Source: Acidobacteriota bacterium (GTDB lineage Bacteria; Acidobacteriota; UBA6911; RPQK01; JADFOI01). Taken from it: a stretch of 64,000 nt of DNA. The translations under genes and the position numbers were made by a program. Under the pieces are notes generated by a model. That model did not search any database. It saw only the letters and a program-made list of their open reading frames with translations, and was not told where the DNA came from. This document shows positions 2,066 through 62,550 of this stretch, piece after piece. Each line of letters begins with the position of its first letter. The stretch's first letter is position 1. The stretch is taken from the NCBI GenBank assembly GCA_965218935.1, contig CBDCMH010000004.1:103965-167964 (forward strand), in the 5' to 3' direction.

Positions 2066-3835
2066 CCCCTTTTTTGTTCACACGAGTTTACAGCTCATCG
2101 GGTTTCTGACCCAAAGAGATGAAAGAAAAGTCTAACCCAGACAATGAGTTAACAGGGTTTGAAAGGCTTCTTGGTCGGACCGTAAACAGGCGTTACCACT
2201 TTCTCCCACAACTCGACATGGAACCCAGGTGTTCACTTCTGTCCCCATCTGCTCCCATCTGCTGGAGATCCCATGAACAAAAGGGTACAGCCCTTGAGAC
2301 CCATTCCTGCCCAGCACCGGGATCTAGCAGTCCGTGGTGAAAGTCGAGGATAAGGGGTCACACAGCGACACTAGAGTGACCCCATGGCAATGGGGAAAAA
2401 GAAACGTCGACAGCAAGAAGACCTGTGGGTCGCCACCAGTGAGCTGCCCCGCACCGCCGGCCATCCCATCTACGAAAGACTGAATGGCCTTTTCAACGAA
2501 CACGGCTTTGACGACTTCGTGGAGGGACTGTGTGCGAAGTTCTATGCAGACAAGATGGGGCGACCGAGCCTGGCTCCGGGAGTGTACTTTCGGCTGCTGC
2601 TGGTGGGGTATTTCGAAGGGATCGGATCGGAACGAGGAATAGCCTGGAGAGCAGCTGATTCTCTGGCACTGCGAGAGTTTCTGGGATTGAAACTGAGCGA
2701 GTCGCCGTCTGATCACTCCACGATCTCCCGAACCCGACGACTGATCGATGTGGCTACCCACGAAGCAGTCTTTGACTGGGTACTGAAGCGGATCGGGGCG
2801 AGCGGCCTGCTGCGGGGCAAGACGATCGGCATCGATGCCACTACGCTGGAAGCGAATGCAGCGCTGCGCAGCATCGTGCGCCGGGACAGCGAGCAGGGGT
2901 ATGAAGAGTTTTTGATGGAGCTGGCGAAAGCCTCCGGGATTGAGACGCCGCGACGGGAAGATCTGGCCAAACTGGACCGCAAGCGCACGGGCAAAGGATC
3001 GAACCGGGTTTGGAAGCACCCGCATGATGCGGATGCGCGAATTACCAGAATGAAGGACGGGCGGACGCACCTGGCGCACAAGGCGGAGCATGCAGTGGAT
3101 CTGGAGACCGGAGCGATTGTCTCGGTGACGGTACAGGGAGCCGATCGAGGGGACACGCAGACCATGGTGAAGACCCTGACGGAAGCGGCCGAGAAGGTGG
3201 AACAAGCGCTGCCGGAGGGACGAGGCATCGAAGAGGTGGTGGCCGACAAGGGGTATCACAGCACGCAGCGGATGGTGGACCTGGATGCGGTGGGACTGCG
3301 CAGCTATGTGAGCGAACCGAGGCGAGGGAAGCGACGCTGGCGAGGAGACCGGCAGGGGCAGGAAGCGGTGTATGCGAATCGGCGGCGCATCCGGGGAGAG
3401 CGAGGGCAGCGGCTGCTGCGGCAACGAGGAGAGCAGCTGGAGCGACCCTGTGCGCATCTGTACGGGAGCGGAGGGATGAGACGGATGCATGTACGGGGAC
3501 ATGAGAATGTGTTGAAGCGACTGCTGATCCAGGTGAGCGCCTTCAATCTGGGGATGCTGATGCGTCAGAGCCTGGGTGTGGGAACGCCGCGGGGTCTGCA
3601 GGGGCGGATTTGCGCCCTGATGCTACTGATTTTGTCGCTGTTCAAGCGTCTTAAGGGCCTGTTCGGACTGATTCCGGCTGCTTGGCCCGAAAAACCCAAC
3701 TCAGCGATCCCTTCGCTGCTTCCACCGGTGGGTACCACCTGAGCTCAGAAAATGTACTTCCACCACGGGCTGCTAGCCCTCCAAGGAGTGTCCCCGGGAG
3801 TTTACAAGTGTCAACGCGTGTTAACTCAAAAAATA
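2066..3835. mobile_element. IS5/IS1182-family-like insertion sequence (approximate boundaries)
   Basis: Single 452-aa transposase ORF. An imperfect terminal inverted repeat lies at 2066-2090 (TTTTTTGTTCACACGAGTTTACA) and 3810-3835 (reverse complement TTTTTTGAGTTAACACGCGTTGACA). Element length of ~1.77 kb fits the IS1182 group. Boundaries are inferred by eye. Confidence 0.45.
2384..3742 (+). CDS. IS5/IS1182-family DDE transposase
   Basis: The N-terminal region ...PIYERLNGLFNEHGFDDFVEGLCAKFYADKMGRPSLAPGVYFRLLLVGYFEGIGSERGIAW... matches the conserved transposase-InsH N-terminal domain (DUF772) of IS5/IS1182 transposases. It has a basic C-terminus, and the long antisense ORF is typical of GC-rich IS elements. 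A perfect 8-bp-stem palindrome GGGGTCAC...GTGACCCC lies immediately upstream of the ATG (2352-2382). Confidence 0.7.
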   Translation: MAMGKKKRRQQEDLWVATSELPRTAGHPIYERLNGLFNEHGFDDFVEGLCAKFYADKMGRPSLAPGVYFRLLLVGYFEGIGSERGIAWRAADSLALREFLGLKLSESPSDHSTISRTRRLIDVATHEAVFDWVLKRIGASGLLRGKTIGIDATTLEANAALRSIVRRDSEQGYEEFLMELAKASGIETPRREDLAKLDRKRTGKGSNRVWKHPHDADARITRMKDGRTHLAHKAEHAVDLETGAIVSVTVQGADRGDTQTMVKTLTEAAEKVEQALPEGRGIEEVVADKGYHSTQRMVDLDAVGLRSYVSEPRRGKRRWRGDRQGQEAVYANRRRIRGERGQRLLRQRGEQLERPCAHLYGSGGMRRMHVRGHENVLKRLLIQVSAFNLGMLMRQSLGVGTPRGLQGRICALMLLILSLFKRLKGLFGLIPAAWPEKPNSAIPSLLPPVGTT

Positions 3836-5162: not shown

Positions 5163-5175
5163 ACCTCATTCCTTT

Positions 5176-5210
5176 CGGATTCGGCACCTGAGGTGCCTCC
5201 CACATTCCGG
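5176..5210. repeat. REP-like hairpin element, family 1 copy (GGCACC-TGA-GGTGCC core)
   Basis: cggattcGGCACCtgaGGTGCCTCCCACATTCCGG sits immediately after the ubiX stop. It recurs at 22503, 56812-56958 and 60565. Confidence 0.7.
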
Positions 5211-5261
5211 ATGTTCTTGCTCGAAAATCCCTTCGGCTCTGTGTGTTCCTCGTAGTCCGGG

Positions 5262-8560: not shown

Positions 8561-9451
8561 GTGATATATTGGTGCCCAGTGAAACCCTCTTTACCAATAG
8601 CCTCAGTGGGTATTTTGACTCTTGTACTGCTCAGCTCCGGGGCCCGTTGCCTGGCTCAGGAGCAGCAAACACCCCAGGCCCTGATGGGCTGGGAAGTCTT
8701 GATGGGAGCAAAACTCCGACTCGTCGAGCTTCCGTCAACGGCAGCGCCAACACTTCCGGCCTGGCCGACTCACGGTCACAGGAATCCTGATGGTCACTCG
8801 ATTTCTTCCTCGAGTGACTCGGAACAGATGGTCACAGAGAGGATGAAACAGAGTCTTGAGGGTGCCATTCAGATCGCGAACGACTATCTCCCCCAAGATG
8901 TGCAGGGAAATTTTCAGCTCTGGATTTTCGAGAACATTCCCTATGCGGCCAAGACCGTGAATCCTCAGCTGATCCTCTCTGCTGAGGTGTTGAGCCCTGA
9001 AAATGGGGAGCGATTACCCTTTGTCATCGCTCATGAGATTCATCATCTTGCCTTGATGCGAATTGGATTCTCGAAATCCCATGCTTCAGTTCAAACCCGT
9101 ATCCTGGCCGGACTCCTCACCGAAGGCATTGCCACGTGGCTTTCTCTTTCATCCGGATTGTTTCCGGAATTGGATCAGATCATTCAGGAACCTCAACAAC
9201 TCAGAGCTTCCTTTGGCCAGGTTCGACATGCCCTCAACCGCTCAGCCGGGGATGTCCAGGCCCATACAGATGACCTCTATCGCCAGAATAAGTGGGGCTA
9301 CTATGTGGGCTGTTGGATGATCCAGCAAATCGAGGAACGGTTTGGCAGAGAAGCCTGGCTTGGACTACTCAACAAGTCTCCTGAAGAGGCTGCTCAGGAA
9401 CTGGTGACTCTTTATCTGCGCACCAACCCTCCCTCCGAATACCGTTTCTAG
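8561..9451 (+). CDS. Secreted putative zinc-dependent peptidase (HEXXH motif)
   Basis: Signal peptide, then ...LPFVIAHEIHHLALMRIGF contains an HExxH zinc-binding motif. 296 aa. Family assignment beyond the motif is inference. Confidence 0.5.
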   Translation: MIYWCPVKPSLPIASVGILTLVLLSSGARCLAQEQQTPQALMGWEVLMGAKLRLVELPSTAAPTLPAWPTHGHRNPDGHSISSSSDSEQMVTERMKQSLEGAIQIANDYLPQDVQGNFQLWIFENIPYAAKTVNPQLILSAEVLSPENGERLPFVIAHEIHHLALMRIGFSKSHASVQTRILAGLLTEGIATWLSLSSGLFPELDQIIQEPQQLRASFGQVRHALNRSAGDVQAHTDDLYRQNKWGYYVGCWMIQQIEERFGREAWLGLLNKSPEEAAQELVTLYLRTNPPSEYRF

Positions 9452-9507
9452 CCCGTACTATTCATAAACTGTCTGCTGCAGCGACGACAGCCTATGAATA
9501 ATCCGGG
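9452..9507. repeat. Family-2 intergenic motif, palindromic full copy (ACTATTCATAAACTGTCTGCTGCAG ... CTATGAATAATCCGG)
   Basis: cccgtACTATTCATAAACTGTCTGCTGCAGcgacgacagCCTATGAATAATCCGGg lies directly after the stop of the peptidase gene and is convergent with the TPR gene. The left arm matches copies at 30174, 32975, 39151, and the right arm matches 46118. Confidence 0.7.
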
Positions 9508-10749
9508 CTAATTCTCAGAGTCTGATTCTTCTTCAACTGCGCGGAGTAATTCGATCAGGGAACTCACCTGTTCCGCATCAGGTGCATCTGGAACCAGTTC
9601 AAGATAGCGGGTGAAACTGTCGATGGAACGCTGGGTCTCGGACTGGCGAAAGAAGAGATTCCCGCGATATTTGTAGGGGTCGGCCAACTGTGCGTCCAGC
9701 TCCGTGGCTCGATCCAACTCCTTGAGGGCACGGTTGGAATCCCCCTGAAGAACCAGCAACGCGCCCAGGTTACTGTGGCACTCAGCAAAGTTGTCATCCA
9801 GCTTCACCGCCTCCTCCAGTGCCCCCAGCGCCGCCGTTTCGTCGCCCAACCGGAGATGAGAGAGCCCAAGAATGTTCCGAACCTGGGCTGAGGTGGGATC
9901 GACCTGCACCGCTCGCCGAGCAACCTGCAAGGCCTCCGCGCTCTGGTCCTGCCGCAAATGTAAGGCAGCCAACTCCACATAGGAAGCAATAAAATCGGGG
10001 TTGCTTGCGACGGCCTCCTCCAAGGCTTGCCGTGCCGACTCCTGATCCCCGCCGCGAAGATCGAGCATTCCCAAATTGTGCCGCGCCGGCGCAAAGTTAC
10101 TATCTATTTGCAGAGCCGCCAGCAATTCCTTCCTTGCCCGATCCAACTGGCCAAGCCGGCTCAAGGTAAATCCCAAGTTGTTATAGGCATCAACGTAACC
10201 CGGCCGCACCTGTTTGGCCTTCATAAAAAACTCAGAGGATAGATGGTATTCGCCCCGTCTGTGGTAGACGATTCCCAGTGTGTTGTAGGCCTCCGGGATA
10301 TTGGGATCCAACTCAATAGCTCTCTGCAGATGGACAATGGCTCTGCGATAGAATTGCGTGACATTCATCCGGCGGCCCTGGCGGGCATAGGCGGTGCCCA
10401 AATTGGAATGGGCAATAGCAAAATCCTGGTGGAGATCCAAGGCTTCTTGGTAGGCCTCCATGGCCCTCCCGTAGTCCGCCTTCTCGAAGTAAACCGTGCC
10501 CAGGTTGTTGTAGGCCTCGGCAAACTGCCCATCCAGCTTCAATGCCTGTCGATATTCATCTATAGCCTCGTTCATCTCTCCATCGCGTTGGAAGTTGGCT
10601 CCCCGGAGAAAATGGAGGATGGCACGTATTTCCAGGGATGCCTGAAGGCTGCTTGCGGCTGCCACCGAGGGCGCCGGGGTACCCCAAGCAGTAAGGGAAG
10701 GCCACAACCCACAAAAGATAAGCAGTTTCAAGAAAAAGCGAATTGGCAT
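9508..10749 (-). CDS. Secreted TPR-repeat protein
   Basis: Multiple 34-aa TPR units (AEAYNNLGTVYFEKADYGRAMEAYQEALDL..., repeated about 9 times). Likely start MPIRFFLKLLIFCGLWPSLTAWG (signal peptide) at 10749, with an RBS upstream. The track start at 10776 is an in-frame upstream alternative. Confidence 0.75.
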   Translation of the reverse strand: MPIRFFLKLLIFCGLWPSLTAWGTPAPSVAAASSLQASLEIRAILHFLRGANFQRDGEMNEAIDEYRQALKLDGQFAEAYNNLGTVYFEKADYGRAMEAYQEALDLHQDFAIAHSNLGTAYARQGRRMNVTQFYRRAIVHLQRAIELDPNIPEAYNTLGIVYHRRGEYHLSSEFFMKAKQVRPGYVDAYNNLGFTLSRLGQLDRARKELLAALQIDSNFAPARHNLGMLDLRGGDQESARQALEEAVASNPDFIASYVELAALHLRQDQSAEALQVARRAVQVDPTSAQVRNILGLSHLRLGDETAALGALEEAVKLDDNFAECHSNLGALLVLQGDSNRALKELDRATELDAQLADPYKYRGNLFFRQSETQRSIDSFTRYLELVPDAPDAEQVSSLIELLRAVEEESDSEN

Positions 10750-10873
10750 AAAATCCTCTCTTCCTGCCAAGTGCAATTCGAGCTAGCTTTGTATGACTCC
10801 CCGCCTCCCTTTCAGCGTCGGGAAGCTTGGCTGCTCCATGTTAAACCTTTCATAAGGGTTAAGACAACCCCGA

Positions 10874-12374
10874 ATTGCCTCATCAAAAATCTATTCGAAA
10901 TGGATACGTTGCCTCATTAAAAAATCTATTCGAAATTGCCTGGCCCTGAGCAGGGGAATAGAAGTGTCCTCCATGAAGGAATGGAGGGCACCAATGAGGT
11001 TAACGATGGCAGAAAAGCGTGTATTGATCAAAAGTTTTGCCCCCCGCTACCGGAAGAAGGGCAAGAAGGTGAAGGGGGAAGTGTTGACGGAGTTTACCCA
11101 AATGACGGGCTACAACCGCTGCTATGGAGCCTATCTGCTTCGCCACCAGGGCAAGCGGATCCGGTTGAGCCCCAAGCTGGTGGCGGTAGGGGATATCGGC
11201 AAGAGAGTACGGCGAGAGCGGGCCCGCAAATACGACCAGAAAGTTCTAAAGGCGCTGACGATGATCTGGGAGATACTGGACTATTTGTGTGGCAAACGTC
11301 TGGTCGCGATTTTGCCGGAAGTGGTACCCATTTTACAAAGACATGGGGAACTGAAAGTGGATGCCAGCACCCATGAGCGGTTGATGCAGATCAGCGCCGC
11401 CACCATCGATCGGCTGCTGGAGCCCGAAAGGTGCAAGCACCGTCTCAAAGGACGATCCGGAACCAAGCCGGGAACGCTGCTCAAACACCAGATTCCGATC
11501 AAGCGTTTCGCCGACTGGCAGGAGGATCGCCCCGGTTTTGTGGAAGTGGACCTGGTGGGCCATGAGGGAGGCCAGGGTCGGGGGGACTACCTTCAAACCC
11601 TGGATGTGACGGACGTGTACACGGGCTGGACAGAGGTCCGAGCGGTGCGCAATAAGGCCCAGGTGTGGGTCCTGGAAGCGATGAAGCTGCTTCAGAAGCG
11701 CTCGCCCTTCCCTTGGCTGGGGATGGCTTCGGACAACGGCAGCGAGTTCATCAACAAGCACTTGATTCGTTTTTGTGAGCAGGAAAAGATCAGCTTCAGC
11801 CGAACCCGCCCCTCGCGCAAGAATGACAACCCTTATGTGGAGCAGAAAAACTATTCGGTGGTTCGGCGGGCCGTGGGTTATGCTCGCTACGAGGGAGAGC
11901 GAGAACAGGAGCTGGTGAACGAGTTGTACGATCGGCTGCGACTGCAGATCAACTTTTTCAAGCCGGTCATGAAGATGGTGGCCAAGCAACGTCGAGGGTC
12001 TCGGATCTGGAAAAAGTATGATGTGCCGAAAACTCCCTACCGGAGGATCTGCGAGTCCCCTGAGGTGGCGGACAAGATCAAGCGGGAACTGGCCCGAGAG
12101 TATGAGAAGCTCAATCCGGCCCAGCTGGCACGGCAGATCGGCTGGCTTCAGAATTGCCTTTTGCTCAAACCGACTCCTGAGCAGAAGAAACGATGGGAAG
12201 CGGGCTGGATGTGAAAATCTTTCTCTTGCTGCAGGCTGCGGGTGTTGGGCAAGGGGTTGCCACTCCTCTGGTTGGTGCTTTTTACCACCACTTTTTGCAA
12301 TCCCTTTCGGATAGATTCTTAGTGAGGCAACGAATACCCTTTGGAATAGATTTTTACGTGAGGCAACGGGCCCC
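10874..12374. mobile_element. ~1.5 kb IS element, copy 1 (single rve/DDE transposase; doubled terminal repeats)
   Basis: Sequence 10874-12374 is essentially identical to 39989-41479. The left end carries two direct 24-bp copies of GCCTCAT(C/T)AAAAA(A)TCTATTCGAAAT. The right end carries two copies of the reverse-complement motif (GGATAGATTCTTAGTGAGGC, GGAATAGATTTTTACGTGAGGC). The boundary was defined by where the two copies diverge from their flanks. Confidence 0.8.
10964..12214 (+). CDS. DDE transposase (integrase core / rve superfamily), IS copy 1
   Basis: 416 aa. N-terminal HTH-like region, then a catalytic core with ...FVEVDLVGHEGG...DVTDVYTGW...MASDNGSEFINKHLIRFCEQEKISFSRTRPSRKNDNPYVEQKNYSVVRR. 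The DNGSEF motif and the K/R-D-N-x-x-x-E pattern match the retroviral-integrase-type DDE fold. Confidence 0.8.
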   Translation: MSSMKEWRAPMRLTMAEKRVLIKSFAPRYRKKGKKVKGEVLTEFTQMTGYNRCYGAYLLRHQGKRIRLSPKLVAVGDIGKRVRRERARKYDQKVLKALTMIWEILDYLCGKRLVAILPEVVPILQRHGELKVDASTHERLMQISAATIDRLLEPERCKHRLKGRSGTKPGTLLKHQIPIKRFADWQEDRPGFVEVDLVGHEGGQGRGDYLQTLDVTDVYTGWTEVRAVRNKAQVWVLEAMKLLQKRSPFPWLGMASDNGSEFINKHLIRFCEQEKISFSRTRPSRKNDNPYVEQKNYSVVRRAVGYARYEGEREQELVNELYDRLRLQINFFKPVMKMVAKQRRGSRIWKKYDVPKTPYRRICESPEVADKIKRELAREYEKLNPAQLARQIGWLQNCLLLKPTPEQKKRWEAGWM

Positions 12375-12473
12375 TTTTTCTCTGCCAGACAACAGGTGAA
12401 AGACCCCCCGACTATTCAGAAATCGAACCAGCGGGTATAGTGAGTCGGTGTTGAACAAACCGAGGAGGAACTC

Positions 12474-22495: not shown

Positions 22496-22502
22496 CTCGT
22501 TA

Positions 22503-22538
22503 CCGGATTCGGCACCTGAGGTGCCTCCTACACTCCGG
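22503..22538. repeat. REP-like hairpin element, family 1 copy
   Basis: ccggattcGGCACCtgaGGTGCCTCCTACACTCCGG lies immediately after the addA stop. Confidence 0.7.
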
Positions 22539-22687
22539 AGGTCTGCAGCAAACCTAGAACTATGAAGCCGAACGGCTCTGTCCCTAAAGCAGCTTCCAAC
22601 TTCCTTGTCTCCCGTCTTCTTCTTCATGGTGTATGATGTAGCCGTTACATGGGTACACACACAGACCCTTGAAAAGGAGAGAAGCAC

Positions 22688-30109: not shown

Positions 30110-30173
30110 ACCCTCTGTGCTCCCTTGAGCATTAGTGCCTCGCTTGCTTTATCGTTGCCAACAACGGAATCTA

Positions 30174-30214
30174 GCCCGGGTTATGCATAGATTCTGTACT
30201 GCAGTAACGAAAGC
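30174..30214. repeat. Family-2 intergenic motif copy
   Basis: cccggGTTATGCATAGATTCTGTACTGCAGTAACGAAAGCG. It sits inside a possible MITE-like unit flanked by inverted GAGCATTAGTG / CACTAATGCTC at 30126-30140 and 30283-30297. Confidence 0.6.
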
Positions 30215-31582: not shown

Positions 31583-32942
31583 AGATCAACCCTTCGAATC
31601 AGAGGTCAAAAGAATGATGAACTATTTTACGAATTTGGGTTTTCAAAGGAAGTTCACCTGCTTTTTACCGGTTCTGATCTCTGCGATCCTTCCGCTGAGT
31701 GGGCAGCAGAATCTGACGCTTCAAGAGGCTTCGGCTCAAGCCCGGAACAATCAGCTTTACCAGGCCCGGCTGGAGCAGGTGGAAGTGCGGAGAGGTCGGT
31801 TGGAACAGGCGGGGAAAAAACTCAATCCTCGGTTGGAGTCGAACTTTGAAACTGGAGCCATTTCGGGAGACAACGACGACTACAAGATTTCACTGGTTTT
31901 CTCACAGACCTGGGAGCGGGGAGGTCCAAGAGCATTACGCCAGCAGATGGCTCAACACGAATTGGACCATGCCGTTTTGGAAGCGGAACATCATTTGAGG
32001 ACTTTGACGTCCGAGATTCGTCTTGCCTATCTGGACTTGCTGCGACTTCAAAAACGGGTTTCTCTCCTGGAGGGTTACAGCGAGGGAGTGAATCAGCTTC
32101 TCCAATTTGATCGGGTACGGGTGCAGGAAGGCGAAATTCCTTCTGTCAATGCCGAATACCTGCTCACCGAGTGGACCCGACTGGCCGCTCAAAAAGGGCA
32201 GCTCGAGACCCAACGTCAACTGGCTCAGTATCGACTGAACATTCTCATGGGAGCACCGGTTGAGGCTGAACATGTGGTGGTCGAGGAGGAGACACAGGAG
32301 GCGCCACTGCCTGCCCTGGATCAGATCCTGAGCTTTGCGCTGAAGGCCCGGATCGACTTGAAAAACATCCGCAGTTCCATCGAACACGCCGATCTTCAAC
32401 TCAGTATGGAGAACGCAGTAGGCAAGAGGGATTGGGAATGGGGCCTGGGATACCAGTACGGCAGGGACACCCTGCAAAGTGATGACTTCCTTCCACCGAG
32501 CATCATCGAATCCGTAGATTCCACCTCCCATCGCCTCAAACTGAACCTCACTATTCCCCTTCCCACCGGGGACAACAATTCTGGAAATCTGGCCGCAGCC
32601 ATAGCGGCCAAGAGAGTCGCAGAGAGAGAACTGGCTCATGCAGAATCCGTCATCCGCAGCGAAGCCTTGTCCGTCTACCAGGAGTACCAGTTCAGTCAAC
32701 AAAGAGGCGAACTGTATCGACAAACCCTGGTGCCCAAGCTGCAGGAGAGCGCGCAAAACATGAAAGCAGCTTATCAGTTGACCGGAAGAGACGTCACAAT
32801 ATGGCTGGGCATCCAAAGAGAGCTTATGGAGGCGGCTTCACAAGGTTTGGAAGCCGATTTCCAATTGAGAGCATCCGTGGTAAAATTGGAGCAAGCTGTG
32901 GGCGGCTCGCTTGAAGAAGTGATGCAATCATCCTCTCCATAG
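31575..32942 (+). CDS. TolC-family outer membrane efflux protein (CzcC/CusC-like)
   Basis: Signal peptide, then an LTLQEASAQARNNQLYQARLEQ... coiled-coil repeat pattern of outer-membrane efflux proteins. 455 aa. The true start may be an internal Met (~31614). Confidence 0.7.
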   Translation: MDKDQPFESEVKRMMNYFTNLGFQRKFTCFLPVLISAILPLSGQQNLTLQEASAQARNNQLYQARLEQVEVRRGRLEQAGKKLNPRLESNFETGAISGDNDDYKISLVFSQTWERGGPRALRQQMAQHELDHAVLEAEHHLRTLTSEIRLAYLDLLRLQKRVSLLEGYSEGVNQLLQFDRVRVQEGEIPSVNAEYLLTEWTRLAAQKGQLETQRQLAQYRLNILMGAPVEAEHVVVEEETQEAPLPALDQILSFALKARIDLKNIRSSIEHADLQLSMENAVGKRDWEWGLGYQYGRDTLQSDDFLPPSIIESVDSTSHRLKLNLTIPLPTGDNNSGNLAAAIAAKRVAERELAHAESVIRSEALSVYQEYQFSQQRGELYRQTLVPKLQESAQNMKAAYQLTGRDVTIWLGIQRELMEAASQGLEADFQLRASVVKLEQAVGGSLEEVMQSSSP

Positions 32943-32974
32943 GAGGATTTTCCTTCACCCTGTCTGCCTACCAG

Positions 32975-33014
32975 CCGGGACTATGCATAAATTGTCTACT
33001 GCAGTGCGGCAATC
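32975..33014. repeat. Family-2 intergenic motif copy
   Basis: ccggGACTATGCATAAATTGTCTACTGCAGTGCGGCAATC, about 30 nt after the TolC-like stop. Confidence 0.7.
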
Positions 33015-33123
33015 ATCCACGCTGACTGCGCGACCCGCAAGCGGGTACCCCCTTCCTTGGGCTCCTCGGCGTTGGTCGTTTTTCCCTTTGAGGAACCTCT
33101 AAATTGAAGGAACGTCTAAGAAG

Positions 33124-34692
33124 ATGGTGAGAGAAAGACTACTTATACCCTTTTTTCTTCTCAGTTTTATGGCAACCTGGACTCCGGTCTGGGCCCATGA
33201 GGGAGTGATCCACGCAGACGGAGTCGAAGTGCATTACCGATTGGAAACCCTCCTAGTAGGCCCGGACCAGCGCTTCCGGGTGACCCTGGCCCATCTGCCC
33301 GATGCCCCTCTGACCGGCCAGAATGTGCAGTTCTTGGTTCGTCTGGAAGAGATCCTGACCGAAGCTGATCCTCTACTGGGTGGGAAGACCCCCCTGATGC
33401 CGGAGTTCTTCCAGGTCAAGTTAGAAGGGGAGGGGGGATCGAGCCTCCCTCTGGAAGTCCAACAGGAGGACGGAGAAGCGGGTGTTTTCCGCTTCGATCA
33501 TGTTTTTGCTCGGTCGGGAGAATGGAAACTCTTCTTTGAGTTTGAAGACGCGAATAAACTCAAGGGAAGCGGAGAGTTGATCATTCCGCTGGGGGCAGCA
33601 CCGGTCAATTGGCCCCTGCTGCTGTTTCAGGGCATGATTATTTTGACCTCCCTGGGCCTGGTGATCCAGCGCTTTAAATCTCCTGCCGGGAGATCTTCGG
33701 TGCTCTTCGCCGTCATTGTCCTATCCATCGGGGCGACCGCCCTGCTCCTGGCAAACATTTCTTGGCCTTCCACCGATCTGGGGACCTTGGAAGTCGAAGC
33801 ACTCTTGGCTCCTCCCGAGGAATCTCCCGGGGTGGAAGATTGGGTCCGGACACCTGAGAAGCACCTTGAAGAGCCCAAGTTCGTCTCTGAGGCTCGAATG
33901 TTCGTGGGGACGGTTCGGCACGCCACCAATCGAATTATCCAGGTACGCAGTCCTTTGCCGGGAACGGCCGTTTTCAAAAATGGAGTTCCCCAGATCGGAG
34001 ACCGGGTAAAATCGGGTCAGGTCCTGGGGAGCATCCAAAACCAGTTTATCGTGCACGACTATTCTCATCTCCTGAATCAGCGCTGGGAGATCATGAAGGT
34101 GATTATGGAGGCCAGCGAAAAACAGGTGCAGGCCGAAGCGGCCTACCAGAGAGCGGCAAGCCTTTTGGATCTGGGCGTCATTTCGCGTCGCGAATTTGAG
34201 CTGAAGGAAGTGGAGTTCAACCAAGCCGACACGACGCTCAAGAAGACCCAGGAACGTCTCAGGTTACACGATACCCAGCTCCGAAGGAGGGATCTGCACG
34301 AAACCCAACTTCTTTCCCCCATCAGCGGATACATCAGCCGCGCCACTTATTCAGCAGGACAGGTGATCTACGAAGACGATCCGATTTTTGAGATCGTCGA
34401 CCCTTCGGTAGTGTGGGTGGAGGTCTTTGCACTCCCGCAAGACATTGCACAAATGGGAGTTGAGTCAGAGGTCACTTTGCATTCCACTGTTTTAAAGCAA
34501 ACCTTCCGGGGGCAACTGGTAGAAGTCAGACCCGATGTGGAGGCCGAATCCAAGGCCCTCCGTGTGCTCTACGAGGTCAAGAATCCCGATCTTTGGCTCA
34601 AACCGGGAATGCTGTTGGATGTCTATCCAGCCGCTGAGGATAAAGAAACGCAACAGGCATCCCAACGAAGCAACGTAGAGGCGGGCAACTGA
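33124..34692 (+). CDS. Efflux RND periplasmic adaptor (membrane fusion protein) with extra N-terminal His-rich periplasmic domain and two TM segments
   Basis: C-terminal half has MFP barrel/hairpin motifs (IQVRSPLPGTAVFKNGVPQIGDRVKSGQVLGSI...SPISGYISRATYSAGQVIYEDDPIFEIVDPSVVWVEVFALPQD). The N-terminal ~150 aa (WAHEGVIHADGVEVHY...) is a separate beta-rich domain, followed by TM helices (WPLLLFQGMIILTSLGLVI; VLFAVIVLSIGATALLL). Confidence 0.65.
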   Translation: MVRERLLIPFFLLSFMATWTPVWAHEGVIHADGVEVHYRLETLLVGPDQRFRVTLAHLPDAPLTGQNVQFLVRLEEILTEADPLLGGKTPLMPEFFQVKLEGEGGSSLPLEVQQEDGEAGVFRFDHVFARSGEWKLFFEFEDANKLKGSGELIIPLGAAPVNWPLLLFQGMIILTSLGLVIQRFKSPAGRSSVLFAVIVLSIGATALLLANISWPSTDLGTLEVEALLAPPEESPGVEDWVRTPEKHLEEPKFVSEARMFVGTVRHATNRIIQVRSPLPGTAVFKNGVPQIGDRVKSGQVLGSIQNQFIVHDYSHLLNQRWEIMKVIMEASEKQVQAEAAYQRAASLLDLGVISRREFELKEVEFNQADTTLKKTQERLRLHDTQLRRRDLHETQLLSPISGYISRATYSAGQVIYEDDPIFEIVDPSVVWVEVFALPQDIAQMGVESEVTLHSTVLKQTFRGQLVEVRPDVEAESKALRVLYEVKNPDLWLKPGMLLDVYPAAEDKETQQASQRSNVEAGN

Positions 34693-35600
34693 TGAGGGAG
34701 TCTGATCCTGTTTTGAGTTACTTGTTAGTTGGGCTCTTGGCGATGGGATTGATTATGCCTCTTAGCACAGGCCAGGGGTGGGCTCAAGACCAGGAAGAGA
34801 TGAGGTCTGGAGAAATCAACTTCACCCCCCGCGGACAGACGCTAAGATTTCAGGGAGAGATTATTCCCCGACCTGATCTGACGGTTGAAGTGGTGGCCTC
34901 CATGTGGGGGAAAATTTATCTGGAAGAGGGAGTCTATGAGGGGGCCAAGGTCGAAAAAGATCAACCTCTGGCGCGCACGGTTTTAGAGCTTCCTGCTGTG
35001 GAGCGGCTCCCCCTGGATGACCGTACCATAGAAATCGAGCAGTATCTGGAAGTTGCCAAAGAAAAGGCCCGCCTGGCCCTGGAGGACTACCAAAGAGCTG
35101 TGGAAATCAGCAAGGAGGATCCTGGATTTGAGGCAGAAAGGGATCGGCGCAAAAAAATCCACCAGAACTCTCTCAAGGAGCTTCAGATCGTCGATCAGCA
35201 GAACACCCGCCAAACGGGCGTCATTGAAAGGCGCGATCCCAGGACCGTCATAGTCAACGCTCCCCTGTCCGGTTACATTGACGAAATCTATTTCGTGCCG
35301 GGTGACATCAACCCCGAGGGCACATTTCGAAAACTCCTGACCATCGTCGATCTTTCCACCGTCTGGGTTCAGGCTGAAATCTATGAAAAAGACCTGCCCG
35401 TTTTCCAGGATGCTCCAGAAGCTCTGATCTCCACGTCGGCTTATCCCGGGGAAACTTTTCGTGCCCGCTTTCAAGCCCTGGGAAGCGAGATCGACCCCCA
35501 GACCCGAACTCTTCCCGTCTACTTCGAGATCCCCAATCCGGAGGGGAAGTTAAAGGTGGGACTGCGCGTCAGCATCCAGCCGATCACCGACAAAAGCTAA
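34692..35600 (+). CDS. Second membrane-fusion-protein-like periplasmic adaptor
   Basis: 302 aa. Signal/anchor, then TVIVNAPLSGYIDEIYFVPGDINPEGTFRKLLTIVDLSTVWVQAEIYEKDLPVF matches the MFP beta-barrel motif. ATGA start/stop overlap with the preceding MFP. Confidence 0.6.
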   Translation: MRESDPVLSYLLVGLLAMGLIMPLSTGQGWAQDQEEMRSGEINFTPRGQTLRFQGEIIPRPDLTVEVVASMWGKIYLEEGVYEGAKVEKDQPLARTVLELPAVERLPLDDRTIEIEQYLEVAKEKARLALEDYQRAVEISKEDPGFEAERDRRKKIHQNSLKELQIVDQQNTRQTGVIERRDPRTVIVNAPLSGYIDEIYFVPGDINPEGTFRKLLTIVDLSTVWVQAEIYEKDLPVFQDAPEALISTSAYPGETFRARFQALGSEIDPQTRTLPVYFEIPNPEGKLKVGLRVSIQPITDKS

Positions 35601-35760
35601 CCCAGGCGGCGGAGATGGCCGCGTCTACTGCGTTGTGCTCGCTCGGCCGTCCTCAACGTACTTCAATGTACGTTTGCGGGGGCCTCTCTTCGCACGCCTT
35701 GTATCCACAGCCATCTCCGCCGCCTGGCAACGATCCGGTCGGAGAAACGTCGGCCCGTCC

Positions 35761-39142: not shown

Positions 39143-39150
39143 GGCCGTAG

Positions 39151-39190
39151 CCGGGACTATTCATAAATTCTCTACTGCAGCAGCGAAACC
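39151..39190. repeat. Family-2 intergenic motif copy
   Basis: ccggGACTATTCATAAATTCTCTACTGCAGCAGCGAAACC, 9 nt after the CopCD stop. Flanked by GCCGGGA...TCCCGGC long-range complementarity. Confidence 0.7.
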
Positions 39191-39332
39191 ATCCGCCCTG
39201 ACTAATCCCGGCTTTGCCGTGCTGTCGTGGGAACGTGACAGAGCTGCCAGACTTCGGTTTGGGAGGTGCGCCCACAAATCTCTGTTTGTCAACGGGTTAT
39301 AGGGCGCACGGCTGTGCGCCCCTACAGGGAGC

Positions 39333-44498: not shown

Positions 44499-46047
44499 TC
44501 ACTTCCTCCGTGCGTGCTGTTGAGCCGATCCCGCCGGGACCAGAAAGGCCGAAGCCAGAGCCAGAAGAGAAAAAATGAAACCGACAAAAAACACATCCTG
44601 CAAAGCCGTACCCAGAAGACCTTGTAACTTGGGTAAAAGAGTCGAGGAGATCTGAGCGCGGTTCAGGGGGTTCACGATGGCATCCGGGTGGCGGGCAACA
44701 TAAGCAATCTGTTCAGTCTGTTCTGTCTCTTCCATAGCCGACAGTCCGGACATCATCTGGCCTGCCATGACGGCTCCCATGATGGCGATACCGATGGAAG
44801 CCCCAATGCTCCGAAAGAACTGGGTTGCCGAAGTGGCAATCCCCAGGGAGCTGCGAGGGAACCGGCTCTGAACGGCAATGAGCATGGAGACCATGCTCAG
44901 TCCCATTCCCACGCCCATGAGAACCAACACCATCGCTAACTCCAGAGGAGAGACCTGGACGGTGACCCGGCTGAGCAGGAAAAACCCGATGCTCAGGGAA
45001 ACCATACCCGTGATGACCGTTCTCCGGTACCCCACAATGAGAATCAAACGCCCTCCTACAATGGAGAAAACCACCCACCCCAGCATCAGCGGGGTGATGG
45101 CCCATCCAGCCTCGGTTGCCCCTGTGCCCTGCACCCCCTGGACAAAGAGGGGGATAAAAGAAATCGCTCCGAAGAGGGCCATGCCACTAAATAAACCATT
45201 GAGTGCGGCGGCGGAAAAAATCCGATCGTTAAAAAGGTGTAAGGGCAAGATGGGGTCGACGGTTTTTCTTTGCTGGAAAATAAATAGGACCAAGAGAATT
45301 CCCGCTGTGACCAGGGTCAGATACTGTCCCGGGCTTGGCTCACCGCCTCTGAGTTGATCCAGACTGATGAGAAGGAGGGAAAGAGAAACGATCAAAACCA
45401 GGACTCCCACGTAGTCCACCCGGCTGGCGCGGCGGGTCCTGGGTTCAACCAGTGCCAGAGCAATGATGGCCCCGGCCAAGAGGCCAAAGGGAAAATTGAG
45501 AAAAAACACCCATCGCCAGGAAAAGTGGTCGGTAATGAGTCCCCCCAGCAGGGGCCCGACGATACTGCTGAGTCCCCAGACACCGCTGAACCAGCCCTGC
45601 ATGCGGGCACGACGCTCCAGAGAGTAGATGTCCCCGATAATGGTCATTCCCAGGGGGAGCAGGGCTCCCGCCCCTAAACCCTGAATGGCTCGAAAGGCGA
45701 TCAGTTGCACCATCGACTGACTCAGACCGCAAAGAACCGAACCGCCGACAAACAATCCGATGCCGGCGATATAAAATAGGCGTCGCCCATAGTAATCGGA
45801 AAGACGTCCCCAAAGCGGAACAGTCACGGTGGCCGTCAGGAAGTAGATCGAGTACACCCAACTGTAAAGCTCAAGTCCTCCGAGACTTGAAATGACGGTG
45901 GGCATGGCCGTCACCACCGCTGTCGCCTCCAAAGCGCTGAGGAAGAGTCCCATCATGACCCCTGAGGTAATCCAGGCTCTCCGCTGCGGCGTCAACTTCA
46001 ATGGGCCCAACAACTCCTCTAGATTTGTGGGTGTGTCTGATAACATG
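44499..46047 (-). CDS. MFS transporter, DHA2-like (14-TMS drug:H+ antiporter family)
   Basis: 14 hydrophobic segments. Conserved MFS motifs GRLSDYYGRRLFYIAGIGLF (motif A) and LCGLSQSMVQLIAFRAIQGLGAG. Likely start MLSDTPTNLEELLGPL at ~46047. Confidence 0.8.
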
Positions 46048-46117
46048 GAGACGGGATTATAGCAGGGCCACGGGAAGGCCGTAACTTGCCCGATCTGACT
46101 GGAGCATGGTAGGCTGG

Positions 46118-46143
46118 CCGGATTATTCATAGGTTTGTCCCGG
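46118..46143. repeat. Family-2 motif, partial inverted copy
   Basis: CCGGATTATTCATAGGtttgtcccgg equals the reverse complement of the right arm of the 9452-9507 copy. It lies in the 51-bp divergent region between the MFS and bioB genes. Confidence 0.55.
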
Positions 46144-50351: not shown

Positions 50352-50380
50352 GCGTGCCAGAACCTGACCAGCTGACCACA

Positions 50381-50430
50381 GCCGGCAGACCCGGCTGAAA
50401 TCCCAAATTCAAACCTGGAAGCGTTCGAAG
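50381..50430. repeat. Family-3 element: CAGCCGG-CAGA-CCGGCTG hairpin followed by CAAATTCAAAC AT-rich tail
   Basis: gctgaccaCAGCCGGcagacCCGGCTGaaatcccaaattcaaacctgg lies 30 nt after the bioA stop. Similar units at 62437 and partially at 53120; related AT-rich motif at 44369. Confidence 0.65.
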
Positions 50431-50484: not shown

Positions 50485-50542
50485 TTGACACTTCAAGGCG
50501 TAGCGCTATACTTCGAATTGAAATTGGTTTTCAATTTCAATT
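50485..50542 (+). promoter_or_regulatory. Near-consensus sigma70-type promoter (TTGACA-16-TATACT) followed by a 12-bp-arm palindromic operator candidate
   Basis: TTGACA at 50485-50490, 16-nt spacer, TATACT at 50507-50512. Immediately downstream is cGAATTGAAATTGgttttCAATTTCAATTag (50512-50542). RBS agggagg and GTG/ATG start of the TonB receptor follow. Confidence 0.5.
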
Positions 50543-50548
50543 AGGGAG

Positions 50549-53050
50549 GTGAACGATGACATCAGCGAGGTACAGAGGGTTTCTCTTGTGATCTTCTGTT
50601 TCCTGATTTTATCCTTAATCGCACCCACTGCCGAAGCCTCATCCCTCGATGGCAACGGTTCCATTGCAGGGCGAGTCCTCGACTCGGGAGGCGGAATCAT
50701 CCAGCAAGTCACGGTCACCTTGAGAAACCAGGAGACGGGCGTAGAACAAAGCACGAGCACCGATCCAGTGGGCGCTTTTCGATTTGAGGACCTGCCCTCT
50801 GCTCCCTACTATCTGAGTACCGAAAAGAAAAACTTTCAGAGCGCCGTCCAGGAGATTCTGTTATCTCCCAGCCAGAACCCTACGATTGATCTCACCTTGA
50901 AGATTGATTCACAAGCGATTATCCGAGAGCGGGTGATGGTGATCGGGGAAGCCTCCGGGGTGGGCGAGATACCCGGTTCCGCCCATTACATCAACCAGGA
51001 ACAATTGGAGAGTCAGCAACTGGCTTACGATGACATCCATCAGATCCTGCACCAGGTTCCGGGCGTGAACATCCAGGAAGAAGACGGCTATGGTCTTCGT
51101 CCCAATATTGGCATGAGGGGAACAGGCGCTGAGCGAAGCTCCAAGATCACACTCATGGAGGACGGAGTTCTTATCGCCCCCGCCCCTTACGCCGCACCTG
51201 CAGCCTACTACTTCCCGGTCACAGGACGCATGGATGCCATTGAGGTACGCAAGGGCTCCAGTCAGATCAAGTATGGTCCGAGAACCAATGGGGGTGCTCT
51301 CAATCTGATTTCCACCGGCATACCCGGAGACTTTAGCCTCAACGGTGATTTGGCCCTGGGGGTCGACAACTCCCGAAAGCTTCATCTGAACCTGGGCGAC
51401 TCCTACAAGCATTTGGCCTGGGTTGCAGAAACCTACCAGATGGCCACCAACGGATTTAAAGAACTCGATGACGGAGGCAATACGGGTTTTGACATCAACG
51501 ATTACCTGGCCAAGTTCCGATTCCACAGCGATGGCAGTGCCCGCATTTACCAGGAACTGGAGATCAAGCTGGGCAAGACCCAACAGCTCTCGGATGAGAC
51601 CTACCTGGGCCTGACGGATACCGACTTCGAAGACAACCCATTGCGACGCTATCGGGGATCACAGCAGGACGTCTTTCAATCGGATCACGAGCAATACCAG
51701 GCCCGTTACTTCATCGTGCCGGCAAGCAACGTTGACGTGACAGCCATCCTTTACCGAAACAACTTTCAGCGCAACTGGTACAAGCTGCAGAGCGTGTCGG
51801 GAACAGACATCACCCACATCTTTGATGATCCGGAGGCCCATTCAGCTGAACTGGCCATGGCCAAGGGCGCCGACAGCGATCCTGATGCCCTGGCCGTGCG
51901 GGCCAACAATCGCGAGTATTATTCACAGGGAATTCAGACCATCCTGGGATGGCAGAGGGACCGGGGAGATACCCAGAACAGGTTCGAGCTTGGCTTTCGC
52001 TATCACAAGGATGAGGAAGACCGGTTTCAGCATGAAGACGGATTCCAGATGCGAAGCGGCGCTATGGTCCTGACCACCAGAGGAGCTCCCGGCAGCCAAT
52101 CCAACCGTATCAGCGGCGCCACGGCCTGGGCTCTTTTCATCCAGGACAAGATTGAGCGAGGGAAATGGACTCTCAGTCCCGGTTTAAGGTACGAGAACAT
52201 CGATCTTTCCAGGACCGACTTTTCTACAAGTGATCCGGAGCGGCTGTCGCCCACCGGAATCCGCAGAAGCAGCGTGGAGGTCTTTGTTCCCGGTTTCGGC
52301 GTCAATTTCCAGGTCACTCCAGCCTTGAGTCTCTTCGGCGGGCTCCATAAGGGCTTCGCTCCACCGGGGCCGGGTTCCAGCCAAGAGACCAAGGCCGAGG
52401 AAAGTCTGAATTATGAATTCGGACTACGCATACACAGTCGACCTCTCAGCTTGGAGGTAGCGGCTTTCGTCAACGACTACGACAATTTGCTGGGTGCCGA
52501 TACGCTGGCTGCTGGAGGTAGCGGCGAGGGGGATCTTTTCAATGGTGGCGAAGTCCTGGTCATGGGACTGGAGGCATCCGGATCTTCTGACTTGGGTGAG
52601 AGGTTCGGTTTGAGCTTCCGCGTTCCTGCCCATTTTGCCTACACCTTCACCCATGGCGAGTTTAGGAACAGCTTTGAGAGTGACTTCGAACCCTGGGACA
52701 GGGTGATGGTCGGAGACGAACTCCCTTATCTTCCCAGGCATCAGTTCAATGCCCGTCTCGGTTTGGAAAAAGCGCGCTGGCGGCTCACCGTGGAGGCCAA
52801 TGCCATCAGCCAGATGCGCACCAGGGCCGGCCAAGGTCCGATTCCCCGCTTGGAAGCCACCCATAGCTATCTCGTCTCCAACCTCTCCGGTGAATACGAC
52901 TTGACGGTCGAGAAGAGGGGCGTCTCTCTTTTCCTTTCCGTACGCAACCTGACCGATCAGGCCTACATCGTGGCTCGCCGTCCCGCCGGGGCCCGTCCTG
53001 GATTGCCGCGCACCTTTATGGGCGGCGTCAAATTTCGATTGGGGCACTGA
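50549..53050 (+). CDS. TonB-dependent receptor with N-terminal CarbopepD_reg-like domain
   Basis: 833 aa. Signal peptide, then IAGRVLDSGGGIIQQVTVTLRNQETGVEQSTSTDPVGAFRFEDLPSAPYYLSTEKKNFQS (CarbopepD_reg), then plug and barrel. The true start is probably a few codons downstream (…VIFCFLILSLIAPTAEA). Confidence 0.8.
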   Translation: MNDDISEVQRVSLVIFCFLILSLIAPTAEASSLDGNGSIAGRVLDSGGGIIQQVTVTLRNQETGVEQSTSTDPVGAFRFEDLPSAPYYLSTEKKNFQSAVQEILLSPSQNPTIDLTLKIDSQAIIRERVMVIGEASGVGEIPGSAHYINQEQLESQQLAYDDIHQILHQVPGVNIQEEDGYGLRPNIGMRGTGAERSSKITLMEDGVLIAPAPYAAPAAYYFPVTGRMDAIEVRKGSSQIKYGPRTNGGALNLISTGIPGDFSLNGDLALGVDNSRKLHLNLGDSYKHLAWVAETYQMATNGFKELDDGGNTGFDINDYLAKFRFHSDGSARIYQELEIKLGKTQQLSDETYLGLTDTDFEDNPLRRYRGSQQDVFQSDHEQYQARYFIVPASNVDVTAILYRNNFQRNWYKLQSVSGTDITHIFDDPEAHSAELAMAKGADSDPDALAVRANNREYYSQGIQTILGWQRDRGDTQNRFELGFRYHKDEEDRFQHEDGFQMRSGAMVLTTRGAPGSQSNRISGATAWALFIQDKIERGKWTLSPGLRYENIDLSRTDFSTSDPERLSPTGIRRSSVEVFVPGFGVNFQVTPALSLFGGLHKGFAPPGPGSSQETKAEESLNYEFGLRIHSRPLSLEVAAFVNDYDNLLGADTLAAGGSGEGDLFNGGEVLVMGLEASGSSDLGERFGLSFRVPAHFAYTFTHGEFRNSFESDFEPWDRVMVGDELPYLPRHQFNARLGLEKARWRLTVEANAISQMRTRAGQGPIPRLEATHSYLVSNLSGEYDLTVEKRGVSLFLSVRNLTDQAYIVARRPAGARPGLPRTFMGGVKFRLGH

Positions 53051-53077: not shown

Positions 53078-53228
53078 GAAATTCAAAATTCAAAACCAAT
53101 TCCAAATCGAACTTGAAACTGGGAACCACAGCCGGCAGATCGCAAACCGCAGACCCCAGACCAACGAACACCTGACAGTTGACAAATCCCCGCCTTCTTT
53201 TCCAAAAGGACGACAGCACGAACTAAAC

Positions 53229-54599: not shown

Positions 54600-54942
54600 T
54601 CCTATGAGTCTCCTCCTGATTCCATCAACTCGTGCAAGAACTTAGCACACCTGAAACCCTAGTGTCTCGTCACCAAGTGACGAAAGCACTGACCTGCTCC
54701 TGGAAGGACGTTGAGTCGCTGCGCTAGGGTTGTTACAAATATCCTTGTCGTTCTCTCAGGTTCTCTGTAATAATGGAGCGACGTTACTTGCTCTTACCCT
54801 TTGAAGGAGGTTTCGGTGCTAGAACCCTACACCGCTTTGCGCCTTCCGAGCACTAGTTTTTGTGTTCGGACTCAGGAAGATATTCAGAAGAATTTGGATC
54901 TGATTTGTGCTTACATCTGCGGGCAGCTGAGGTACTGGACTT

Positions 54943-56811: not shown

Positions 56812-56958
56812 TCCGGAACGTAGGAGACACCTGGTGTAGTGGCCGCTCTCAGAGCGGCCTTCTGGAATGTAGGAGGCACCTCAGGTGCCGAACGGCCACA
56901 AAACACCCCCGGATTTTCGGATTCGGCACCTGAGGTGCCTCCTACATTCCGGAGGTGT
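56812..56958. repeat. Compound REP-like cluster (family 1): degenerate copy, GGCCGCTC-TCAG-AGCGGCC hairpin, and an inverted pair of GGCACCTSAGGTGCC units
   Basis: ccggaacgtaggagacacctggtgt ... GGCCGCTCtcagAGCGGCC ... ggaatgtaggaGGCACCtcaGGTGCCgaa ... ggattcGGCACCtgaGGTGCCTCCTACATTCCGGagg. Located after the SSS stop and convergent with the PhoU-like gene. Confidence 0.75.
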
Positions 56959-60564: not shown

Positions 60565-60610
60565 CTCCGGAATGTGGGAGGCACCTGAGGTGCCTCCCAC
60601 ATTCCGGAGG
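60565..60610. repeat. REP-like element, family 1, perfect palindromic copy
   Basis: CTCCGGAATGTGGGAGGCACC-tga-GGTGCCTCCCACATTCCGGAG forms a 21-bp perfect stem with a 3-nt loop. It lies between htrA (5' end) and the STAS gene (3' end). Confidence 0.8.
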
Positions 60611-60670
60611 TCTTCGCAATCCTGACGGTTCCCGGCGAGCCACCGACTCGCCCCCACGTCGTTTCGTTAT

Positions 60671-61989: not shown

Positions 61990-62433
61990 ATGAGATCCCG
62001 TAACGATGTTGGAAGAGGAATCCACCGGAAAAAGTCCAAAATGCCGCTCCTGATGGCTGGTCTGTTCGTATGCCTGGTGGGAATGATCGTACCCGTTAGC
62101 GCTCAAGGGAGCCGCGGCTTCATTTCTGCCGAGTTTTCCCGTCCGCAACAAGAATGGTCGATTCAGGAAGTAGCCCAGCGCTATGGTGTTACCGAAGCGG
62201 TCGAACTCTCCTTTCAACTTCAGCAGGCAGAAGAAGCCCACCGGGAAATGGAGAAAATTAAGAGAGCTCAACAGCGGGACCGGGAACTTCGGAGCAAGGT
62301 CGCAGAACTGGCCAAGACTTCAATGAAACTCTATCAACGATTCGATAATCCCTCGGAAACCCACGCGGATACTCCTCAACTGGCAAAAAAGTGCGAGGAG
62401 CTGGCCAAGGCCATTAAGAAGCTCTTGCGCTGA
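61990..62433 (+). CDS. Hypothetical secreted alpha-helical protein
   Basis: 147 aa. Signal peptide MPLLMAGLFVCLVGMIVPVSAQG after a basic N-terminal region. Lys/Glu-rich coiled-coil-like C-terminus. Confidence 0.45.
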   Translation: MRSRNDVGRGIHRKKSKMPLLMAGLFVCLVGMIVPVSAQGSRGFISAEFSRPQQEWSIQEVAQRYGVTEAVELSFQLQQAEEAHREMEKIKRAQQRDRELRSKVAELAKTSMKLYQRFDNPSETHADTPQLAKKCEELAKAIKKLLR

Positions 62434-62436
62434 AGT

Positions 62437-62550
62437 GCTGACTGCAGCCGGCAGACCGGCTGAAATTCAAAATCTCAAATTCTAAATTTCAAACCTGACC
62501 TGGAACCTGGAACCCGGAACCTGGAACGCGCGCGAAGCGCGCTCTGGCTC
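62437..62550. repeat. Family-3 element plus tandem heptamer repeats and GC palindrome
   Basis: gctgactgCAGCCGGcagaCCGGCTGaaattcaaaatctcaaattctaaatttcaaacctgaCCTGGAACCTGGAACCCGGAACCTGGAACgCGCGCGaagCGCGCtc. Starts 4 nt after the stop of the 61990 gene. Confidence 0.7.

Follow-up and report, generated by a model that had tools for sequence, protein, structure and literature searches.

A motif of about 40 nt recurs behind genes in a 64-kb stretch of the genome of an Acidobacteriota bacterium (contig CBDCMH010000004.1, positions 103,965 to 167,964; hereafter the window, in which positions are counted from the first letter). The motif is very probably the left terminal inverted repeat (TIR), together with about 25 nt of subterminal sequence, of a miniature inverted-repeat transposable element (MITE), a non-autonomous transposon derived from an insertion sequence (IS) of the IS1380 family. 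The element is a genomic parasite of an ordinary sort; neither a regulatory RNA nor a control site is involved, and no host function needs to be assumed. Decayed MITE ends had been among the candidates of the original prediction, which was made from the letters of the window alone; this candidate proved correct, most of the window copies being truncated relics.

Our view of the source genome is the 64-kb window, and there the motif is real. A 25-mer of it was found with up to three mismatches at 9457, 32980 and 39156, against 0.00 matches expected from 100 dinucleotide shuffles of the window; a fourth match, at 30182, was seen once four mismatches were allowed. The four plus-strand copies, which start at 9450, 30173, 32973 and 39149 (copies 1 to 4), align without gaps over 32 nt (consensus AGCCsGkryTATkCATArAyTsTsTrCTGCAG). 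All copies are present where the original prediction had placed them, and the conservation of about 80% over about 40 nt that it had estimated was measured as a pairwise identity of 70-82.5% (mean 77%) over 40 nt, with none expected by chance. End profiles built from 80 foreign full-length copies were run against the window with nhmmer and recovered the same four plus-strand sites (E = 1e-15 to 3e-10) as well as the opposite arm of copy 1, which is palindromic, at 9509-9483 on the minus strand (E = 5e-5). Copies 3 and 4 are similar past the proposed length of about 40 nt (82% identical over 55 nt), and copy 3 reaches to about 33072. The family features of the window are the following.

9450-9509, plus strand: copy 1, a complete 60-bp mini-element with left TIR 9450-9466 and right TIR 9493-9509; the adjoining bases are T (9449) and A (9510)
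30173-30213, plus strand: copy 2, a relic consisting of a solo left-type end (nhmmer left-end profile E = 1.3e-10)
32973-33072, plus strand: copy 3, truncated, with left end and internal modules (…CATCCACGCTGACTGCGCGACCCGCAAGCGGGTACCCC…GGGCTCCTCGGCGT), right end gone (nhmmer E = 1.3e-15)
39149-39213, plus strand: copy 4, internally deleted, left end intact (39149-39193), of the right terminus only TAATCCCGGCT (39203-39213) (nhmmer E = 8.9e-14)
46118-46135, minus strand: remnant of a solo right-type terminal repeat (CCGGATTATTCATAGGTT) in the MFS/bioB divergent region (E = 7.9e-4 with the nhmmer right-end profile)
54665-54687, minus strand: weak right-subterminal relic without terminal repeat (right-end profile positions 21-43, E = 7.4e-4; BLAST hits)
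35602-35727, plus strand: related chimeric element with an internal hairpin module (…CCTCAACGTACTTCAATGTACGTTTGCGGGGGCC…) inside a different 27-nt inverted repeat (internal part matched by 33 BLAST hits)

Both family arms occur together in the window only in copy 1 (profile support E = 2.9e-10 for the left and 4.9e-5 for the right end), which has near-identical 60-bp sisters at three unrelated loci (L049, L091 and L093). It is also the sole window copy of the family with a strong hairpin (-27.8 / -36.2 kcal/mol, z = -6.4 / -7.9). Downstream of copy 2 no right end was found by BLAST, profile or end searches, and this copy folds no better than shuffles (z = +1.6). Copy 3, spanned by 132 BLAST hits from foreign full-length copies, has a fold z of -0.4, and in copy 4 pairing is limited to a terminal 8-bp stem (z = -2.3, at most marginally better than shuffles). 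With one intact mini-element and four to five truncated ends, the family is decaying in the window. The chimeric element forms a 126-nt perfect stem (-72 kcal/mol, z = -8.5) directly after the stop of the open reading frame (ORF) 34692-35600. Its 27-nt inverted repeat was not found elsewhere in the window or the loci compared, and, judging by this element, internal modules seem to be exchanged between repeat families.

The inverted partial copy that had been reported at 46118 does exist (E = 8e-4), but it is of the right-end type and is closer to the second arm of copy 1 than to the first. The longest ORF of the adjacent MFS transporter (44499-46130, minus strand) has its ATG (46128-46130) inside this remnant, so that the start annotated there may be an artefact of the repeat. 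Another ATG in the same frame follows after 24 nt (complement of 46104-46106).

Structure and distribution of the family

A wider motif search was carried out on one representative genome per species with the degenerate 23-mer TATKCATARAYTNTNTRCTGCAG, seeded with the left end only. More than 107 stretches matched, and 103 of the 107 retrieved loci carry the family. All but two of these 103 come from metagenome-assembled genomes (MAGs) or single-cell genomes labelled Acidobacteriota or from one unnamed bin (101 loci); the other two are in bins labelled Proteobacteria. The remaining four loci are isolated chance matches in Clostridium, Sphingobacterium, Bacteroidales and Clostridiales. The family is present in at least ten Acidobacteriota MAGs of an uncultured marine clade, and a single complete 3.59-Mb chromosome (OY760074.1) contributed 26 of the retrieved loci, with 32 paired elements. 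Flanks differ between copies, which are dispersed at unrelated loci, and in nearly all loci the motif runs on into the same longer sequence. The copies are thus embedded in a multi-copy mobile element, and the reading of the motif as an autonomous unit, which had been made to depend on the opposite outcome, is refuted.

Complete elements carry at both ends a 17-nt terminal inverted repeat, AGCCCGGAyTATkCATA, with an imperfect extension to about 40 nt. Conservation within the family is highest in this 17-nt core. A search for the core as AGCCCGGATTATGCATA with up to three mismatches gave 248 matches over all loci. In left-type ends (n = 119) the core is followed by AATTCTCTACTGCAGCGACGAAATCATCC, in right-type ends (n = 91) by GGTTCTyGTsACGAAGCGaCGAAAGCGCC. 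Inward-facing end pairs (n = 103, 86 of them left-right) are 26-295 bp long with a main mode at 180-215 bp. Complete elements typically measure 150-265 bp, and shorter derivatives of 26, 60, 90 and 105 bp exist. Subclasses include a 149-bp subfamily, four 60-bp minis, among them the window copy, and ten 26-bp palindromes that are two terminal repeats alone. The interior is non-coding and consists of a variable string of GC-rich hairpin modules (e.g. GCGACCCGCAAGCGGGTACCCC, CCTCAACGTACTCAAGAGTACGTTTGCGGGGGCC, GAGCCGCAGGCTTTAGCCTGCGG…), which are present, absent, duplicated or inverted from copy to copy. A full copy folds as a single long hairpin (-55 kcal/mol, z = -6.9) closed by a left-right stem of about 40 nt; hence, the 40-nt motif is the whole extended left inverted repeat.

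Features by which MITEs are recognized include TIRs of at least 10-15 bp, a small size of about 50-800 bp without coding capacity, many dispersed copies, orthologous sites with and without the element and an autonomous element whose termini match and which could supply a transposase; the family displays these. Correia elements of Neisseria, RUP of Streptococcus pneumoniae, ERIC/IRU of enterobacteria and Nezha of cyanobacteria are bacterial MITEs of a comparable kind, and Correia elements use a TA target. Like these, the elements described here are short, non-coding, multi-copy and intergenic, have TIRs and long hairpins, are found at filled and empty sites and match an IS in their termini; unlike them, they belong to another sequence family and host phylum and have an IS1380-type partner. 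The BOX elements of Streptococcus pneumoniae are built of constant end modules around variable internal hairpin modules, and here, too, end modules enclose internal hairpin modules of varying number and order. However, the ends of the present family are true TIRs common to an IS, whereas for BOX we know of no transposase partner with matching ends. A literature search of incomplete coverage found no paper on an IS1380-derived MITE, on a MITE family in these Acidobacteriota or on the sequence itself.

Insertion sequences with the same ends

Two unpaired ends in OY760074.1 lead into identical unique sequence, which is a 1670-bp IS (L089:2441-4110; a second copy is cut off at L020:1-606). It encodes a protein of 464 amino acids that matches PF13701 (E = 7.7e-152) and the NCBIfam model NF033539, 'IS1380 family transposase' (399.7 bits, cutoff 180). 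One end of this IS, TAGCCCGGATTATTCATAAATTCT, is the MITE left end over 24 nt; the other end is more diverged. Three further ISs of 1628-1648 bp (L122, L123 and L124), whose transposases are 70-86% identical to that of the first, are bounded at both ends by AGCCCGGATTATGCATA or AGCCCGGATTATTCATA, with 0-1 mismatch to the 17-nt MITE core. The stretch L093:1509-1859, considered as a second full IS, was set aside as a remnant only; it holds the same end and transposase residues 414-464. A search for autonomous copies by way of end pairs lying 0.4-3 kb apart gave none in the loci.

According to ISfinder, members of the IS1380 family measure 1.55-2.0 kb, have ends starting with CC and make direct repeats of 4-5 bp. 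The partner ISs resemble IS1380, ISEcp1 and relatives in their transposase match, their length of 1628-1670 bp, their single ORF and their inverted repeats, which start with CC after CTAG. This tetranucleotide stands on both sides of all four copies and may be a duplication or only a target preference. To our knowledge, no strict CTAG context has been described for the IS1380 family. The window copies differ from the family: they lack a transposase, are 40-100 bp long and have no more than the outer 17-24 nt in common with the ISs. The transposase of an IS1380-type IS would bind the terminal repeats and mobilize the small elements in trans. The DNA-binding-protein site put forward by the original prediction stands only in the trivial sense that the terminal repeat is presumably bound by its own transposase, and is very improbable as a site for a host protein.

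The window has an IS of its own with an rve-domain transposase, which was considered as the partner and rejected since its ends are unrelated. This IS is present in two identical copies (10871-~12380 and 39987-~41496), with the transposase ORF at 10964-12214 and inverted ends at 10898-10935 and 12340-12377. The transposase scores weakly on IS481 and IS3 models, under their cutoffs. The second copy is missing from the Logan contig L109 of the same species, indicating a polymorphic insertion.

Filled sites, empty sites and stop codons

Flanks of the elements were compared with all loci and with metagenomic relatives of the DUF5700 gene upstream of copy 1. A 150-bp element (L002:4637-4786) is missing from the orthologous site in L082, and a 207-bp element in L082 is a bare 26-bp palindrome at the matching site in L002. 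This palindrome probably arose by internal deletion between two TATGCATA cores, which are their own reverse complement and so could act as direct repeats. A 198-bp element (L092:3878-4075) splits another repeat, six other copies of which are unbroken. The site of copy 1 is empty in the orthologs L110 (…cgttttTAGttctctgattc…) and L113 (…cgcttcTAAttctctgag…) and filled in L112, which by flank identity is the most distant of the four (upstream gene 83-85% identical to the others; in the downstream flank L110 and L113 are 94.9% identical). Relationships at this site are given by pairwise identities of two flanking segments, and they allow either one scarless loss or two insertions of the same 60-bp subfamily at the same TA. 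A scarless loss, if there was one, could also have come from replication slippage across the hairpin. Several insertions are common to different species-level MAGs. The closest copies within OY760074.1 are 96.6% identical; thus, the family is not very young.

Three relatives (L111:3385-3490, L120:180-285 and L121:156-260) carry another inverted-repeat element of about 95 nt (GGAAGAATTTGGTGCCAGCCCC…GGGGACAGGCCCAGAATTCGTTCC) at the exact TA used by copy 1. The presence of a different element at the same TA between the DUF5700 and TPR genes marks this site as an insertion hot spot.

Among 87 complete copies, the element is preceded by T in 79%, with C or T next outward in 80%, and followed by A in 62%, with G or A next outward in 74%. 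All four IS copies are flanked CTAG...CTAG. Among the small elements, C opens the right-hand tetranucleotide in 97% of copies but the left-hand one in only 43%. At empty sites there is one YTAR, and a filled site is the empty site plus the element and one extra TA, cTA[GCC…GGC]TAr. The possibility that the element includes the TA and causes no duplication was rejected, as it predicts empty sites 2 nt shorter than those seen. The small elements speak against a strict 4-bp duplication, which the four IS copies still allow, and no variable target duplication of 2-6 bp was detected at offsets -3 to +4 beyond TA/TAG/CTAG. Insertion would be into the TA of YTAR, preferably CTAG.

This context bears on the position of the copies behind genes. 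The original prediction had noted that copies start 4-65 nt from a stop codon. The proximity is real; however, in copy 1 the termini themselves form the stops of both flanking ORFs. ORF 8561-9451 ends at T(9449)AG and the convergent minus-strand ORF 9508-10776 at CTA (9508-9510), each stop being composed of a flanking TA and a terminal base of the element. In empty relatives of this site the two convergent genes overlap in CTAA or TTAG. Over the loci, where gene calls were heuristic and stop-anchored, the TAG at the element edge is the neighbour's own stop codon in 14 of the 49 ends that face a gene 3' end. As the first base of the element is G and the last is C, TA plus the terminal base gives a TAG stop on each strand. 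An insertion at a stop codon would be harmless because TAG is rebuilt on both strands. In a genome of 55% GC, insertions into YTAR would be tolerated mainly at TAA/TAG stops and between genes. The probable TA-in-YTAR target together with selection against insertions in coding sequence explains the proximity to stop codons, so that no 3'-end function is needed.

Another repeat of 45 nt (…GTATTCATGGGACGAGACAC) forms inverted pairs about 200 nt apart and repeatedly abuts MITE or IS1380 ends. It may be a further MITE family and a preferred landing site. Its copies are located as follows.

L089:2403-2447: 45-nt repeat
L050:1401-1445 and 1644-1676: 45-nt repeat
L002:1610-1654 and 1854-1885: 45-nt repeat
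L073:1111-1156 and 1356-1387: 45-nt repeat

Competing explanations and related transposons

Several observations weigh against derivation of the motif from an IS1380-type transposon, or against parts of the proposed mechanism. Within the 64-kb window there is no transposase gene with these ends, and mobilization in trans is an inference from the shared ends. The junction lengths fit equally well a duplication of TA, a duplication of CTAG with the repeat counted from CC, or a blunt CT|AG insertion. The inner AG/CT is 90-97% conserved, like the element, and the outer C/T and A/G only 43-79%; moreover, the empty site in L082 is 1 nt shorter than any model predicts. In gaps between co-directional genes 17 elements are oriented with the genes and six opposite (p = 0.035, on crude gene calls), and all four left ends of the window are on the plus strand; a purely selfish element does not predict an orientation bias. 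The 17:6 bias could be noise or weak selection on orientation.

An origin as a MITE is compatible with the retention of some copies for a benefit to the host; for instance, the hairpin might form a barrier where genes are convergent or in tandem, or the copy might provide stop codons. We regard such retention as unlikely. It would fit the hairpin of copy 1 (-28 to -36 kcal/mol), which lies exactly between the two convergent stops that this copy supplies, the preservation of copy 1 in two lineages with a flank identity of only about 83%, the insertions common to different species-level MAGs and the orientation bias. However, closer relatives have the same site empty with both genes intact, and most window copies are broken. 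The original prediction was right that the motif lacks a U-tract and is not a simple terminator; no T-tract or terminator signature is found in any window copy, and the gene upstream of copy 3 has a terminator-like hairpin of its own (an overlapping pair at 32930-32948). No other terminator-like site lies near the copies, and scans for sigma-70 promoters and intrinsic terminators revealed none that overlaps a window copy.

A structured small RNA or 3'-UTR element had also been proposed; it would be co-transcribed with the upstream gene and act as stabilizer, attenuator or riboregulator. In its favour, the window copies lie just past stops, each on the strand that codes for the gene upstream, the hairpins of copy 1 and of complete foreign copies are very stable, and the mild 17:6 bias points in the same direction. 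Yet Rfam 15 gave no match at the gathering threshold, either in the window or in 18 loci that contain full elements, and three of the four window copies have no partner arm and fold at most marginally better than shuffles (z = +1.6, -0.4 and -2.3). Elements occur in all four gene contexts, divergent promoter regions included, their internal modules are swapped, duplicated, deleted and inverted among copies, and orthologous sites are found with and without them. The hairpin is simply the DNA inverted repeat that is common to the transposase-bearing IS. This proposal is not supported and is very improbable.

Equally improbable is that a host transcription factor or nucleoid protein binds at a site built around the TATGCATA palindrome and the neighbouring CTGCAG. 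TATGCATA is a perfect 8-bp palindrome, and no part of the family is better conserved than the 17-nt core; but this core stands in inverted pairs that delimit a mobile unit and forms the tips of four IS1380-type elements, its position relative to promoters is inconsistent, with no sigma-70-like promoter overlapping any window copy, and CTGCAG is confined to the left subterminal part, being absent from the right end and from the ISs.

A repetitive extragenic palindromic (REP) or REPIN repeat, moved by a RAYT (an IS200/IS605-like tyrosine transposase) and not by a DDE transposase, would agree with the richness of these genomes in short palindromic repeats, including a second REP-like family (GGCACCTGAGGTGCC…) in the window, and with the palindromic 26-bp and 60-bp forms, but, judged by ends and size, it is scarcely credible given true TIRs identical to those of DDE (IS1380) ISs, units of mostly 150-265 bp and ends that read (T)AGCC in place of the GTAG or CGTC heads that are reported for the two large REP super-families of imperfect 20-40-nt palindromes (PMC3733652).

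An unrelated second palindromic repeat family (TTCGGCACCTGAGGTGCCTCCCACATTCCGGA) is found at 5173-5214, 22501-22542, 56861-56892, 56915-56956 and 60566-60611, sometimes in inverted pairs. It also occurs in the copCD/DUF1775 intergenic region of L097 (~3075-3105) and nested in the MITE L075:1949-2243. Other repeats of the window are a 26-nt inverted repeat (50512-50537 / 53086-53111) that brackets ORF 50549-53050 and a 50-nt direct repeat (50364-50413 / 62430-62479, 70% identical) after two different genes. An exact-sequence look-up of two window proteins returned no record.

The derivation from an IS1380-type transposon also invites comparison with eukaryotic elements. The piggyBac transposons use a TTAA target, have ends of the form CCC…GGG and excise seamlessly. 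The elements described here are alike in their palindromic tetranucleotide site (CTAG), in a start that reads CC(C/G)GG and in scarless loss at least once, if the history of copy 1 is read in that way, and unlike in that the target is CTAG/YTAR and not TTAA. These parallels in tetranucleotide context, CC-initial ends and scarless loss are suggestive. IS1380 transposases serve as prokaryotic outgroup of piggyBac (PMC10813416). Read jointly, the observations could represent the first described MITE family of IS1380 origin, piggyBac-like and specific for CTAG (YTAR), which colonizes stop codons, even overlapping convergent ones, harmlessly by way of the rebuilt TAG and leaves without a scar. We hold this full combination to be possible, though on balance doubtful. 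If it is true, the mild orientation preference behind genes could reflect selection on read-through.

In annotating genomes of these marine Acidobacteriota, repeat masking should include the motif and its longer relatives. The elements can mislead the calling of starts and stops, as the stop at 9449-9451, the end of ORF 9508-10776 and the candidate start at 46128-46130 all lie inside termini. Contig L109 (ERR13605531, 3504 bp) ends inside copy 4, an indication that these repeats break short-read assemblies. The biological value of the family is modest; it connects a MITE with the IS1380 family, to which the prokaryotic relatives of piggyBac belong, and shows clearly, in a natural case, how the ends of an element can regenerate stop codons.

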